Source: a bacterium
Lineage (GTDB): Bacteria; Actinomycetota; Acidimicrobiia; Spongiisociales; UBA5794
Assembly: GCA_024228555.1 (NCBI GenBank)
Contig: JAAETI010000355.1
Span: forward strand, 3,602-67,601
Reading direction: 5' to 3'
DNA: 64,000 nt
A program made the position numbers and the translations under genes. The notes beneath the pieces are model-generated. The model had not been told where the DNA came from and searched no databases. It saw nothing but the letters and a program-made list of their open reading frames with translations. How positions within the stretch are numbered: position 1 is the first letter of the stretch; each line of letters starts with the position of its first letter. Shown piece after piece: positions 21,842 to 29,095 of the stretch.

Positions 21842-24421
21842 ATGTCTGAAACCACGTCTTTCTCTGTTAACGGACGTGACGTCCAGGTGCGGAGCGATCA
21901 TCCCCATCTGCTGTCAGCTTTGCGCGAAGAAGTAGGGGTTACGTCACCAAAGGACGGTTGCTCCCCTTCGGGTCAATGTGGTGCATGCACTGTATTGCTG
22001 GACGGCAAGGCAATCCAGAGTTGTCTCGTCAATATGGAGAAGGCCTCGGGCAAGACCGTCACAACGCTCGAGGGCTTTGATCCTGACGAACGTGACCGTC
22101 TTTCAAAGGTCTTTGCAGTAACCGGCGCCTTGCAGTGCGGTTTCTGTACTCCCGGCATCTTGGTTCGCACCAAGGCGCTGTTTGATCAGAAAGGCCCGGC
22201 TGGGGTCACTTCGCAGGTGGCCGCGGGTCGCCTCGGTGCGCACCTCTGCCGTTGCACCGGGTACACCAAGATTCTCGAAGCCGTTGAGATGTTGGCAACG
22301 GGCAATATCCCCGAACCGGCCACCCCGCAGCGGATCGGCGATAACGGTGCCAAGTACGAAGGCGTCGAACTGGCGCTCGGTGATCGTGGTTATGTCGACG
22401 ACATGTACCCGGATGGGATGTTGCACGGGGCATTGCGGATGACGGATCACTCCCGCGCTGACATCATCAAGATCGACACATCTGCTGCTGAGGCAGCCGA
22501 AGGTGTCGTCGGTGTGTTCACCGGAGCTGATGTTCCCGGCGAACTCAAGGTGGGGATCATCTACACCGACTGGCCGGTCTTCATCCCCGAGGACGGCCGT
22601 ACCTCGTACTACGGCGATGTCCTGGCCATCGTTGTGGCGGAGACCAAGGCACAAGCGCGCGCCGCCGCCGAGCTTGTCGAGGTTGAGTACAACGTGCTGA
22701 AGCCATTTGCCGATGCGAAGTCGGCTTTGGCTTCTGACGAGGACGCGGTGTGGGGTCTCGACGGCAACGTTCTGTCGACCTCCAAGTACAAGAGGGGAGA
22801 TGTTGACGAAGCGCTCGCGGGTTCTGCACATACCCTGCACGAGGTGTTCAAGACACAGCGCGTCGAGCATGCATTCCTGGAGCCTGAGTCGACGCTTGCT
22901 GTGCCCGACGGCAACGGCAATCTCATGGTCTACTCCGGCGGTCAAGGTGTGTGGGATGATCGCAACCAGATCGCCTCGCTCCTCGGTATCGAGCAGAGCG
23001 CGGTAACGGTCGAACTTGTTTCCAACGGCGGTGCCTTCGGTGGCAAAGAGGACATGTCGAACCAGGGGCAGACGGCTCTTGCCGCCCATCTGCTCGGGCG
23101 ACCGGTCAAGTGCACTCTGTCTCGCGAGGAGTCATTCCGCATTCACGCCAAGCGGCACCCGATCGAGATCGAGGTCTGGGCGGGTTGCGATGCTGACGGC
23201 AAGCTAACCGGTCTTCGGTCGCGGATGATTGGCGATTCCGGCCCGTACGCTTCCGTCGGGATGAAGGTGTTGGAGCGTGCCGCCGGTCACATGTGCGGCC
23301 CGTATGTGTGGGAGACCGTCGATGTCGAAGCGATCGCGGTCCGCACCAACAACCCGGTGTGTGGCGCCTTCCGTGGCTTTGGTGCCAACCAGGCTCAGTT
23401 TGCGATGGAAGGGATCATGGATCGTCTTGCCAGTGCCGTCGGGATCAGCGGGTGGGAAATGCGTTCCCGCAACGTCATCAGCCCCGGGGTGGTGTGGGGT
23501 CCCGGTCAGATCATGGACGACGGCAGCCGTGGCGCCAGGGAATGTCTTGATGCAGTCAAGCCTGCGTACGACCAAGCGCGCGCCGATGGCAAGGCTGTCG
23601 GTATAGGGCTTGGCCTCAAGAACTCGGGTCTTGGCAACGGCTTCCTGGAGATCTCCAAGGCTGTCGTTCGATTTGAGGATGATGGGACTGTCGAGGTGCG
23701 GCATTGCTGGACCGAGATGGGTCAAGGTGTGCACACGGTCGCCCTCCAGGTAGCTGCGGAAGAGCTCAATATCGATGCCGACCGCATCCGGGTTGTGGTT
23801 GACACCACCCGGGAACTCGGAGCGGGACAGACCACAGGTTCCCGTGGCACTTTGATGGTTGCCGGCGGTGTCGCCGACGCGTGCCGGGTTGCCAATGAGC
23901 ACAACCAGGCGCCTGGGGTTGATTATGAAGGCGAGTATCGGGTCGATTGGACCAACGCTCTCGAAGAGGAAGTGGAGAATCCAATTCTGCACTCGGCATT
24001 CGGGTATGCATGTCAGGTCGTTGTCGCCGACAAGGGCACCGGCAAGTTCGACAAGGTGATCGCGGCTCACGACGTGGGCCGCGCCGTCAACCCGATGCTG
24101 GTCGTCGGTCAGGTCGAAGGCGCCGTGCACATGGGTCTTGGATATGCCCTCACTGAGGAGTTCCCGACCGACGACGATGCTCGGCCCACAAACTGGACCT
24201 TGCGTAGCCTGGGGATCCTGCGGGCGAAGGACATGCCGGAGGTGGAAACCATCCTCGTTGAGGTCCCGCAACCTCGTGCTCCCTATGGTGTCAAAGGTGT
24301 CGGAGAAATCGGACTGGTGCCAACTGCAGGCGCGGTTGCCGGAGCCTTCTATGAGGTCGATGGCAAGCGCCGCACTCAGGTGCCGTTCAACATTCATCAG
24401 CCTCTGGAGGTAGCGAAGTGA
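21842..24421 (+). CDS. molybdenum hydroxylase, fused [2Fe-2S] + molybdopterin-binding subunit (XdhD-like)
   Basis: N-terminal ferredoxin with all 8 Cys (CSPSGQCGAC...SC; QCGFCTPG; CRCTGY). Followed by a xanthine dehydrogenase-family MoCo domain (GGAFGGK, GVKGVGEIG). No FAD domain is present. Confidence 0.9.
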   Translation: MSETTSFSVNGRDVQVRSDHPHLLSALREEVGVTSPKDGCSPSGQCGACTVLLDGKAIQSCLVNMEKASGKTVTTLEGFDPDERDRLSKVFAVTGALQCGFCTPGILVRTKALFDQKGPAGVTSQVAAGRLGAHLCRCTGYTKILEAVEMLATGNIPEPATPQRIGDNGAKYEGVELALGDRGYVDDMYPDGMLHGALRMTDHSRADIIKIDTSAAEAAEGVVGVFTGADVPGELKVGIIYTDWPVFIPEDGRTSYYGDVLAIVVAETKAQARAAAELVEVEYNVLKPFADAKSALASDEDAVWGLDGNVLSTSKYKRGDVDEALAGSAHTLHEVFKTQRVEHAFLEPESTLAVPDGNGNLMVYSGGQGVWDDRNQIASLLGIEQSAVTVELVSNGGAFGGKEDMSNQGQTALAAHLLGRPVKCTLSREESFRIHAKRHPIEIEVWAGCDADGKLTGLRSRMIGDSGPYASVGMKVLERAAGHMCGPYVWETVDVEAIAVRTNNPVCGAFRGFGANQAQFAMEGIMDRLASAVGISGWEMRSRNVISPGVVWGPGQIMDDGSRGARECLDAVKPAYDQARADGKAVGIGLGLKNSGLGNGFLEISKAVVRFEDDGTVEVRHCWTEMGQGVHTVALQVAAEELNIDADRIRVVVDTTRELGAGQTTGSRGTLMVAGGVADACRVANEHNQAPGVDYEGEYRVDWTNALEEEVENPILHSAFGYACQVVVADKGTGKFDKVIAAHDVGRAVNPMLVVGQVEGAVHMGLGYALTEEFPTDDDARPTNWTLRSLGILRAKDMPEVETILVEVPQPRAPYGVKGVGEIGLVPTAGAVAGAFYEVDGKRRTQVPFNIHQPLEVAK

Positions 24422-28500: not shown

Positions 28501-29095
28501 CATCTGCAGCCTGTGTGTCGGGGTTTGCCCGAACATGGCGCTCTTGACGTACGAGATGTCGCCGTTCCGTGCCCAGCTACCGGCGCTGTCCATCCAGGGC
28601 GGTTCCGTGGTGGTTGGCGAGGCCCGTGATTTCAGCATCGATCAGTCTCTGCAGATTGCGGTGCTGACCGACTTCTGTAATGAGTGTGGCAACTGCGTGA
28701 CCGCATGTCCGACCTCGGGCGAACCATATCGGGACAAACCCAGGCTGTATCTGGACCGGCCCGATTTCGAGGCCGAGAAGGACAATGCCTTCTGGGTTAC
28801 CCGCAACGGAGATACCACGGTTGTCGAGGCACGCTGGGATGGCGAGACGCATCAACTGGCTATCAACGGTCAGGTGGAGTACACCGCACCGACGCTACAG
28901 GCGACTCTGGAAACAGAAACACTGAAGCTGGTGTCGGTTCACACCGGAGGCGGGGCCGTTGACGGCCAGAGCCTGTCGCTGGAGCCGGCCGCTCAGATGT
29001 ACGCATTCTGGCGTGGTCTCAACGGCTCCATGCCCCAGATCCCGCTCGCCGGGGCCGAAGGCACCAAGGTCGCCCATCCCGGTTACGAGGAGTAG
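25523..29095 (+). CDS. YgfK-like Fe-S flavoprotein oxidoreductase (DHOD/DPD-like TIM barrel + GltD-like FAD/NADPH domain + 2x[4Fe-4S] ferredoxin)
   Basis: GltD-like dinucleotide motif AIIGAGPAGIAAGQELGRAGFAVTIFE...VGVIGAGDTAMDC. Cys clusters CIQAPCVDECP, CLDCDTICSLCVGVCP and CNECGNCVTACP. 1190 aa. Confidence 0.85.
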   Translation: MSDRFHQITMEQLTDWVFTELEEKDSVFGIPRSSFFVPAETDRFRFEKYGQLLETPFGVAAGPHTQMAQNIIVSWLVGGRFLELKTIQTLDELDVAKPCIDLEDEGYNVEWSQELKVFESFDEYLRAWVLIHALHHKLGFPGDSPGMIFNMSVGYNLEGIKKPNVQWYLNAMADSSPYKQSYVDIVAERYPEIRDLDIPDTVSDTITLSTMHGCPPDEIEAIALYLLEERKIHTSVKCNPTLLGAERVRGIINDDLGFGDIPVPDEAFGHDLKYVDAVPMFHNLRRAARVNDLVFGLKLSNTLEVENHRMVFEGEDMMYMSGRSLHAVTTNLALRLSEEFKGDLLLSFAGGADAFNVADLMRSGMTTITVCSDLLKTGGYLRMPQYIEELNKAMDKAGAGSIQDFITATAVAQENMGDFIPLLAFSALTDSGIDVSGDQAASLSEYLRYESSGAPLTAISTWAEQNGFDDERRAGLVKVAVAALKRINLRQYAQYVRTDWRYLKGSFRTDRSKTERELHLFDCIQAPCVDECPVSQDVPAYMRAVRDGDFDKAIEITRSDNPLGSMLGRVCDHLCETTCIRTHMDEPLAIREMKRFIMDRETSTGETRSAGTAGKVAIIGAGPAGIAAGQELGRAGFAVTIFEAHPYAGGMVGGAIPEYRIPQAQIDQDLKILEDLGVEVKYNMKAGTDFTLAELSDQGYQYTFVAVGAQLPKYLGFDGEDSEGVIDALAFLRSVREGTPMPVGPRVGVIGAGDTAMDCVRSAWRVGATETSLIYRRTIDQMPADREEIHESIAEGVNIIELANPHAIHAENGKLKGLICTKTEYRGDRDVSGRKIPFDVPDSQFEIEVDTLIMAISQYSLLDFFGSAEPELTNRGYISVNPDTYETSIPGVYAGGDVAADGPSSIVKAAADGKKVASAIVKAATGTPIPMPETWKPLELNVSDMMARRARREYRVPVRHTALDVRDNFNETLMTYSQEEAQAEASRCLDCDTICSLCVGVCPNMALLTYEMSPFRAQLPALSIQGGSVVVGEARDFSIDQSLQIAVLTDFCNECGNCVTACPTSGEPYRDKPRLYLDRPDFEAEKDNAFWVTRNGDTTVVEARWDGETHQLAINGQVEYTAPTLQATLETETLKLVSVHTGGGAVDGQSLSLEPAAQMYAFWRGLNGSMPQIPLAGAEGTKVAHPGYEE

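Follow-up and report, generated by a model that had tools for sequence, protein, structure and literature searches.

Organization of the locus

We analyzed a 64-kb stretch of DNA from an Acidimicrobiia bacterium (64,000 nt of contig JAAETI010000355.1), here called the window; all window-wide negative results below are limited to it. Our subject is a three-gene operon encoding, in this order, a fused iron-sulfur/molybdenum (Fe-S/Mo) hydroxylase, a short SsnA-like amidohydrolase and a YgfK protein (Table 1), with a probable role in the reductive degradation of uric acid. An earlier interpretation of this DNA from its letters alone (the sequence-only reading) had described three open reading frames (ORFs) on the same strand, and we confirmed their coordinates and lengths, the overlap of the first two and the intact cysteines of the hydroxylase. 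The GTG start codon of ssnA (24418-24420) and the TGA stop codon of the hydroxylase gene (24419-24421) share the sequence GTGA at 24418-24421, and a GGAGG element is located 7 nt upstream of the start. The GC content by codon position (0.69-0.74 at third positions) indicates that the ORFs fit real genes. As previously stated, the operon lacks a gene for a subunit binding flavin adenine dinucleotide (FAD): Pfam detected no FAD-binding domain in the hydroxylase, nor elsewhere in the three genes. A search for riboswitches and other RNA elements with Rfam returned zero matches at E ≤ 0.1 across positions 15000-40000, and predictions of intrinsic terminators were not above chance.

Table 1. Features of the operon and its surroundings, in positions of the window. 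EcSsnA and EcYgfK, E. coli proteins; ABC, ATP-binding cassette; DOPOR, NADPH:2,8-dioxopurine oxidoreductase.
Feature	Position	Strand	Basis
859-residue fused 2x[2Fe-2S] + molybdopterin hydroxylase without FAD domain, XdhAC/TIGR03311 type	21842-24421	+	Pfam, NCBIfam
340-residue short SsnA-like amidohydrolase, GTG start	24418-25440	+	NCBIfam best family, EcSsnA alignment
1190-residue YgfK (DOPOR)	25523-29095	+	TIGR03315, EcYgfK alignment
Promoter/operator-like site TTGACA-17 nt-GATGAT	21783-21811	+	Consensus scan and conservation
Thiamine_BP/MTH1187-YkoF-like ORF (PF01910)	21442-21789	-	Pfam
HTH_22 protein (PF13309)	21087-21449	-	HTH_22 as sole Pfam hit
BMP/PnrA-type ABC transporter, four genes	16135-21005	-	Pfam
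Transporter ATPase	16135-17661	-	Pfam
Transporter binding protein	17736-18827	-	Pfam
Transporter permeases	18868-19800 and 19797-21005	-	Pfam
yqeC	32948-33667	-	TIGR03172, 173 bits (cutoff 73)
yqeB	33671-34471	-	TIGR03309, 323 bits (cutoff 220)
xdhC-like	34471-35262	-	XdhC domains
970-residue XdhD orthologue, cysteine-less N-terminal domain	35266-38178	-	TIGR03313 best family
247-residue FAD-binding YgfM-like subunit	38175-38918	-	28% identity to E. coli YgfM
MocA/YgfJ-like molybdenum cofactor cytidylyltransferase domain protein	38958-39890	+	NTP_transf_3; TIGR03310, 125 bits (below cutoff 186)

The large flavoprotein belongs to the YgfK family

Judged by family scores and architecture, the 1190-residue protein is a true YgfK and not a generic GltD-like protein or dihydropyrimidine dehydrogenase (DPD). 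With the NCBIfam model TIGR03315 it reached 916.4 bits, passing the curated equivalog cutoff of 835.3, while the runner-up family (PRK12771) scored 409 bits and generic GltD-like families remained at less than half of the TIGR03315 score. The window protein aligns collinearly with E. coli YgfK (39% identity overall, 45% over residues 1-390 and 30% over residues 446-1126). Its architecture is complete, comprising a YgfK-specific N-terminal domain, a GltD-like [4Fe-4S]/FAD/NADPH module (Fer4_20 and Pyr_redox_2 in Pfam) and a C-terminal domain with two [4Fe-4S] clusters. The ligands are conserved, with C523, C528, C532, C571, C575 and C579, GAGPAG (residues 620-625), GAG.TAMD and two CxxCxxCxxxCP motifs being invariant. 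The N-terminal domain is homologous to the YgfK domain modelled as the site of flavin mononucleotide (FMN) by Li et al. (2025, bioRxiv 10.1101/2025.05.19.654654). The GltD-like module finds its closest matches in modules for electron input, those of NfnB, of formate dehydrogenase and of a protein deposited under the name 'molybdopterin oxidoreductase'; solved DPD structures were matched, by sequence, only through this module. The protein thus falls into the YgfK clade, as had been anticipated, and does not group with glutamate synthase or DPD. We propose that it functions as an NADPH:2,8-dioxopurine oxidoreductase, an activity so far demonstrated with E. coli YgfK only.

The window YgfK is ~160 residues longer than that of E. 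coli, mainly owing to a linker insertion of ~60-80 residues (residues 391-505) and a longer tail. The linker between the N-terminal domain and the GltD-like module measures 115 residues in the window and its close relatives, ~50-67 residues in other clades and 32 residues in E. coli. Its length is unrelated to the type of SsnA encoded nearby (see below), and the extra segments likewise occur irrespective of whether the hydroxylase is present. The idea that these segments substitute for the missing N-terminus of the short SsnA was rejected, as the 115-residue linker is confined to one subclade, short-linker YgfK accompanies either type of SsnA and both share the C-terminal tail.

The hydroxylase resembles the FAD-less XdhAC type

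The 859-residue protein contains the Pfam domains Fer2, Fer2_2, a/b hammerhead and MoCoBD_1/2, with the Mo domains at residues 309-850. All eight cysteines of the [2Fe-2S] clusters are present (C40, C46, C49, C61, C99, C102, C136 and C138). The best family was TIGR03311 at 806.2 bits, 24 bits short of the cutoff of 830.45, in an alignment of residues 6-850 with profile positions 2-842 of 848. The sequence-only reading had identified this protein as XdhD. However, the XdhD model TIGR03313 gave only 201 bits (cutoff 1101.9), and the identity to E. coli XdhD is 24%. By these measures the protein is not an XdhD orthologue; in best family and layout it is most like the FAD-less XdhAC/TIGR03311 type.

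Among solved structures, the FAD-less aldehyde oxidoreductase of the D. gigas type has the closest full-length architecture, and the best match of the Mo domain in the PDB is the selenium (Se)-dependent nicotinate dehydrogenase of E. barkeri (3hrd_A). The position of bovine A1078 is occupied by Thr (QTTGS versus ATAAS in the xanthine dehydrogenase (XDH) of R. capsulatus), and that of bovine F1009 by the aliphatic residue Leu, an assignment made by ungapped extension outside the aligned block only. GGKE, FRGFG and the catalytic Glu of VGE are kept, with equivalents of bovine Glu802 and Arg880 present. We propose that the enzyme is a 2,8-dioxopurine dehydrogenase (DOPDH), which would convert urate to 2,8-dioxopurine.

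The SsnA-like protein is a conserved short form

The 340-residue protein, with Amidohydro_1 as its Pfam domain, was earlier described as SsnA-like. This assignment stands: SsnA was the best family by ~180 bits, the next amidohydrolase family scoring 78 bits. The protein is 34% identical to residues 56-434 of E. coli SsnA, with the HxH, His, His and Asp motifs aligned. Nevertheless, it scored below the cutoffs of both SsnA models (248 bits for TIGR03314, cutoff 455.5; 260 bits for NF005540, cutoff 444), because only profile positions 57-333 of ~441-444 are aligned. The sequence-only reading had missed that the protein is a shortened variant. It begins at the equivalent of residue 56 of E. coli SsnA, 5 residues ahead of the metal motif PGLVCAHHH, and ~55 N-terminal residues are missing. 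The N-terminal beta-sandwich segment of a complete amidohydrolase is not present, and ~48-85 N-terminal residues of solved homologues have no counterpart. The metal and catalytic ligands are unchanged, as AHHH, HIHVCE, SHCVHL and GTDG align with the E. coli motifs.

More than 120 protein clusters of 340-341 residues (a few of 318 residues) exist at 79-96% identity; public annotation names them no more specifically than 'amidohydrolase family protein'. In ~50 genomes or loci the start codon has kept its place 4-5 residues ahead of PGLVCAHHH, mostly with a Shine-Dalgarno-like sequence upstream. A pseudogene or a mis-called start was rejected on the basis of these same-length clusters and the conserved start codon. 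The short form was found in Acidimicrobiia, Chloroflexia and Thermoanaerobaculia (~50 genomes) and forms a tight separate clade. An AlphaFold2 model of moderate quality (predicted local distance difference test score 71, predicted template modelling score 0.77, residues 207-266 below 50) was used only for confirming the fold class; it matches TRZ/ATZ-type amidohydrolases, which are themselves ~100 residues longer. We propose that the protein catalyzes the hydrolytic opening of the reduced pyrimidine ring.

Between Acidimicrobiia and Chloroflexia (loci L031-L051), the short SsnA is 75-82% identical, whereas the flanking hydroxylase and YgfK are just 47-51% and 58-63% identical, respectively. 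The high identity of SsnA between phyla reflects either unusually strong constraint or recent gene transfer.

Conservation of the operon in relatives

To assess synteny, YgfK loci were scanned with one genome per species, and the best 80 of at least 598 loci were used; the 66 of them that extend 4 kb or more upstream of ygfK were informative. The nearest relatives among the best 80 were Acidimicrobiia metagenome-assembled genomes (MAGs; 84-85% identity), in agreement with the distant lineage suggested before. Other loci belonged to Chloroflexia, Thermoanaerobaculia, Woeseiaceae and other Gammaproteobacteria, Verrucomicrobiota and Kiritimatiellae. In 43 of the 66 informative loci, the gene immediately preceding ygfK is a short ssnA. 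The 859-type hydroxylase accompanies it in 28 of these 43, nearly always immediately upstream and with a stop/start overlap, and is absent in the remaining 15. The overlap of the hydroxylase and ssnA genes is conserved across two phyla, and the co-conservation of the three genes expected from the sequence-only reading is thus borne out.

Gammaproteobacteria show an E. coli-like order of ygfK, full-length ssnA, FAD subunit, hydroxylase, ygeY, ygeW and yqeA. In one Chloroflexia locus (L066), a full-length SsnA occupies the slot between hydroxylase and YgfK. Homologues of hyuA, ygeW, ygeY or yqeA are found beside ygfK in relatives with the short SsnA (for example L018, L020, L024, L026 and L070), which speaks for a role of the short form in the same pathway. 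No SsnA-like gene was detected in the flanks (up to 10 kb per side, less in several) of seven YgfK loci from Verrucomicrobiota, Kiritimatiellae and some other lineages (L057, L059, L060, L062, L063, L077 and L082). Long ORFs ending in an SsnA domain had hinted at an in-frame hydroxylase-SsnA fusion in Chloroflexia; this was rejected, as the two genes are in different frames and high GC content gives open-frame artefacts.

The XdhD/YgfM-like pair and cofactor genes

A block of yqeC, yqeB, xdhC-like, XdhD-like, FAD-subunit and mocA-like genes is located ~4-10 kb downstream of the operon, on the opposite strand except for the mocA-like gene. The 970-residue protein is 36% identical to E. coli XdhD over its full length, with the GEG (E606) region aligned. 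By these alignments, the pair at 35266-38918 (minus strand), and not the 859-residue protein, is the real counterpart of XdhD/YgfM, and the E. coli neighbourhood is conserved more fully here than had been recognized. The yqeC, yqeB and xdhC-like genes are predicted to function in Se/Mo cofactor maturation; the latter two are separate neighbours, whereas E. coli YqeB (541 residues) fuses both parts. While the 859-residue hydroxylase keeps its eight cysteines, neither the 970-residue protein nor E. coli XdhD (L001:26317-29187) has the Fe-S cysteine ligands of the two N-terminal [2Fe-2S] domains, which raises the question of how XdhD-type enzymes pass electrons from the FAD subunit to Mo. A gene for a pyridoxal phosphate-dependent protein at 62834-64000 (minus strand) was considered as ygeX and rejected, showing just a weak 46-residue match.

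Among the related loci, the XdhD-like/FAD pair and the 859-type hydroxylase occur next to ssnA-ygfK singly or together, and the window has both. From this distribution, the two look like alternative urate reductases. In L018 (~5 kb of upstream sequence) and L028, the pair was the sole hydroxylase found near ssnA-ygfK. In Chloroflexia L031-L051, a conventional XDH, consisting of a fused Fe-S and FAD subunit of ~470 residues and a Mo subunit of ~770-800 residues, is encoded beside the trio on the minus strand downstream of ygfK. This arrangement fits a two-hydroxylase route from xanthine via urate to 2,8-dioxopurine.

Transporter, regulator pair and promoter-like site

The sequence-only reading had placed a BMP ABC transporter, a YkoF-like gene and a PucR-like regulator next to the operon. 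The first two were recovered, the YkoF-like gene being of the Thiamine_BP/MTH1187 type, but the supposed PucR-like regulator has HTH_22 as its only Pfam hit and showed no domain of the PucR type. The transporter genes, divergent from the operon and probably serving purine or nucleoside uptake, adjoin it in 12-16 related loci, depending on the gene. The Thiamine_BP-like and HTH_22 ORFs overlap by 8 nt. Their conservation beside the operon in 9 loci and their fusion into a single 233-residue ORF next to ssnA-ygfK in L030 (8209-8910, plus strand) suggest a two-part system, probably a split ligand sensor/DNA-binding regulator.

By itself, the consensus promoter scan did not place the site at 21783-21811 above chance. 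The site coincides, however, with a conserved palindrome, of which the -35 box forms one half (TTGACAAAATGTCAA in relatives, TTGACAAAAAGTAAA in the window, where the second half-site is degenerate, AGTAAA). The palindrome TTGACAAAATGTCAA followed by GATGAT(A) is kept upstream of the hydroxylase gene in nine loci, with the surrounding spacer unconserved. The Thiamine_BP-like/HTH_22 pair probably controls this putative promoter.

Two ORFs of 107 and 199 residues directly downstream of ygfK (29249-30186, minus strand) gave no Pfam match; they are not kept at the related loci and are possibly not genes. Another BMP-family ABC transporter is encoded 14 kb from the operon (43531-48349, minus strand), with genes for a binding protein, an ATPase and two permeases; it best matches models named 'putative B6 ABC transporter', in each case with a score under the cutoff.

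Comparison with characterized systems

The gene neighbourhood was defined as a selenium-dependent molybdenum hydroxylase trait by Haft & Self (2008, PMC2276186). Its description as poorly understood in the sequence-only reading is outdated, as the biochemistry has been reported in two preprints from 2025. In E. coli, XdhD-YgfM with NADH converts urate to 2,8-dioxopurine, a reaction linked to the GEG/E606 region of XdhD. YgfK and SsnA with NAD(P)H yield ureidomethyl-hydantoin, with no YgfK product in the absence of SsnA, and HyuA, YgeW/YqeA, YgeY and YgeX complete the route to pyruvate (Li et al. 2025, 10.1101/2025.05.19.654654). In C. sporogenes, a fused FAD-less XdhAC is the DOPDH (Liu et al. 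2025, bioRxiv 10.1101/2025.04.24.650524). This enzyme, with its Mo domains at residues 307-839, depends on SelD and makes no use of NAD(P)H. Its closest relative is Se-dependent nicotinate dehydrogenase, and it carries the signature F1009V and A1078T/S relative to bovine xanthine oxidoreductase. According to the same study, YgfK (DOPOR) is an NADPH:2,8-dioxopurine oxidoreductase that accepts NADPH only and by itself turns 2,8-dioxopurine into an unstable intermediate. Of the two roles offered by the sequence-only reading, purine catabolism is supported by these preprints, and selenate reduction is excluded for YgfK.

The window resembles the C. sporogenes cluster in combining an FAD-less fused Fe-S/Mo hydroxylase of ~850 residues with YgfK and SsnA. 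Compared by published description, the Mo domains correspond in position (307-839 and 309-850), nicotinate dehydrogenase is the nearest relative of both enzymes, and the 859-residue protein has Thr at A1078 and, by tentative alignment, an aliphatic residue at F1009; dependence on a YqeB/YqeC selenium cofactor is implied here by the neighbouring genes. The window differs in the SsnA lacking ~55 N-terminal residues, in downstream genes that are not clustered and in another transporter and regulator. C. sporogenes is a gut Firmicute, whereas the host of the window is an environmental actinobacterium.

As in E. coli, YgfK (39% identity) and SsnA (34%) are encoded adjacently, with yqeB, yqeC, a mocA-like gene and an XdhD/YgfM-like pair in the same 20-kb region. 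In contrast to the E. coli order ygfK-ssnA-ygfM-xdhD, the order here is hydroxylase-ssnA-ygfK. The operon hydroxylase is of another type (24% identity, Fe-S cysteines kept, no FAD partner), the XdhC-YqeB fusion of E. coli corresponds to two genes, and ygeW, ygeX, ygeY, hyuA and yqeA are not in the window.

The aldehyde oxidoreductases (MOP) of Megalodesulfovibrio gigas and D. desulfuricans (PDB 1sij and 1dgj) likewise carry two [2Fe-2S] clusters and Mo on one chain without FAD. The MOP sequence has GYK and FRGYG at the positions aligned with GGKE and FRGFG, and the Mo domain of the 859-residue protein is nearer to Se-dependent nicotinate dehydrogenase. A further parallel, also drawn by Li et al. 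(10.1101/2025.05.19.654654), is the PydA/PydB system (dihydropyrimidine dehydrogenase/dihydropyrimidinase), in which ring reduction via NADPH, FAD, [4Fe-4S] clusters and FMN is followed by opening through an amidohydrolase. YgfK differs by its permuted domain order, with the TIM-barrel at the N-terminus, and by having a purine as its substrate.

Proposed pathway and alternatives

We analyzed gene structure, family assignments, conserved residues and synteny, and took the chemistry from the literature on E. coli and C. sporogenes. On this basis, the three enzymes of the operon probably carry out the upper half of reductive uric-acid degradation via 2,8-dioxopurine, in which the ring is attacked. 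We infer that the orthologues act as in these two species, and likewise which hydroxylase acts on urate and what roles the transporter and regulator have. The 859-residue hydroxylase, running 'in reverse' with electrons from a low-potential donor, would remove oxygen from C6 of urate and so form 2,8-dioxopurine; its selenium-containing Mo cofactor would be matured by YqeB, YqeC and XdhC, encoded 4 kb away. YgfK would then reduce the pyrimidine ring of 2,8-dioxopurine, with electrons passing from NADPH via FAD and the [4Fe-4S] clusters to FMN. This step would be unfavourable alone and would be pulled forward as the short SsnA hydrolyzes the reduced ring, yielding a ureido-hydantoin. The BMP transporter, encoded divergently, would import a purine or nucleoside, and the Thiamine_BP-like/HTH_22 pair would act on the TTGACA-palindrome promoter.

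Several observations weigh against this assignment. The chemistry stems from proteins of E. coli and C. sporogenes, none of them from the lineage of the window. The hydroxylase is 24 bits under the cutoff of a family that NCBI names 'xanthine dehydrogenase', and residues typical of enzymes that oxidize xanthine, the counterparts of bovine Glu802 and Arg880, are retained in it. The short SsnA is only 34% identical to its E. coli counterpart, has lost ~55 N-terminal residues and scores below both cutoffs. The window also encodes an orthologue closer to the E. coli urate reductase XdhD/YgfM, and this could take the urate-reducing role. Finally, no homologue of hyuA, ygeW (or uacY), yqeA, ygeY, ygeX or selD was found among the ORFs of the window.

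The roles of the two hydroxylases could be divided as in E. coli, with the XdhD-like/FAD pair as the urate reductase and the 859-residue protein as a selenium-dependent xanthine/hypoxanthine dehydrogenase supplying the pathway with urate, leaving YgfK and SsnA unchanged. The NCBI title of TIGR03311 ('selenium-dependent xanthine dehydrogenase'), the retained GGKE, FRGFG and VGE Glu, the full-length XdhD orthologue with its GEG/E606 region and the occurrence of the pair as the only hydroxylase found in L018 and L028 speak for this division. We nevertheless consider it unlikely, as the FAD-less fused enzyme of C. sporogenes, of the same size and layout, acts between urate and 2,8-dioxopurine and is not an XDH, and the Thr at A1078 and the tentatively assigned aliphatic residue at F1009 are as reported for DOPDH. 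Moreover, it is the 859-type hydroxylase that is translationally coupled to ssnA in two phyla, and a second XDH would be redundant in Chloroflexia, where the trio adjoins a conventional one.

The absence of an FAD subunit from the operon raises the question of the electron donor. The sequence-only reading had suggested YgfK as the partner of the hydroxylase, in which case its NADPH/FAD/[4Fe-4S] module would allow NADPH to drive both reductions, possibly within a hydroxylase-SsnA-YgfK complex. NAD(P)H alone does not work for the FAD-less DOPDH, whose published reconstitution always contained methyl viologen and dithionite. The similarity of the GltD-like module to other electron-input modules and the three-gene synteny with its conserved stop/start overlap would also fit, and the surroundings of the related loci show no conserved gene for a ferredoxin or flavodoxin. 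However, YgfK is already complete as an enzyme and has a substrate of its own, SsnA is its constant neighbour, and the 15 loci with ssnA-ygfK but without the 859-type hydroxylase leave the suggestion unsupported. In addition, the FAD-less hydroxylase of C. difficile works with UacX, which has no FAD domain, and does not require YgfK (Li et al. 2025, 10.1101/2025.05.19.654654), and the extra YgfK segments track neither the hydroxylase nor the SsnA type. We regard this role of YgfK as doubtful. An equally speculative extension is that, in the environmental clade, FAD-less hydroxylase, trimmed SsnA and YgfK form one complex in which the YgfK module feeds both reductions and the unstable intermediate is channelled to SsnA; if true, this would answer what donates electrons to the FAD-less DOPDH.

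It seems highly unlikely that the three enzymes process some N-heterocycle other than urate/2,8-dioxopurine (an alternative oxopurine, a pteridine or a compound resembling a pyrimidine) and that the shortened SsnA signals such a switch of substrate. The low SsnA scores and identity, the separate clade of the short form, the lack of downstream urate-pathway genes in the window and the environmental rather than gut habitat would agree with it. In contrast, YgfK scores as an equivalog, the metal ligands of SsnA are unchanged, L066 has a full-length SsnA in the identical slot, and hyuA, ygeW, ygeY or yqeA homologues are adjacent in relatives with the short form. The old annotation of ygfK, ygfM and xdhD as a selenate reductase survives in the legacy names of TIGR03315, TIGR03313 and TIGR03312 only. 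We give it practically no credence, since these genes have a defined purine function and the published assays contradict it, selenate being neither required for nor stimulatory to YgfK (Liu et al. 2025, 10.1101/2025.04.24.650524).

Implications

In conclusion, gene order and family membership indicate that the operon is real and conserved and is part of a now-characterized pathway, representing a known system in an environmental variant. The known chemistry is unaffected by our findings. Their novelty is limited to an environmental branch spanning several phyla, in which SsnA is trimmed and unannotated and YgfK is longer, with a regulator and a transporter of its own and with two types of hydroxylase at a single locus. 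When reported in 2025, the reductive uric-acid pathway was presented as a trait of anaerobic bacteria of the gut (10.1101/2025.04.24.650524; 10.1101/2025.05.19.654654). As judged from the window and 80 relatives, the same core enzymes occur in Acidimicrobiia, Chloroflexia, Thermoanaerobaculia, Woeseiaceae and other MAGs without a host-associated label. Because the short SsnA falls below the family cutoffs and carries a generic annotation, surveys using SsnA as a marker may miss this branch. With both known types of urate-reducing hydroxylase, with and without an FAD subunit, side by side, the locus is convenient for comparing their roles and for asking what donates electrons to the FAD-less type.

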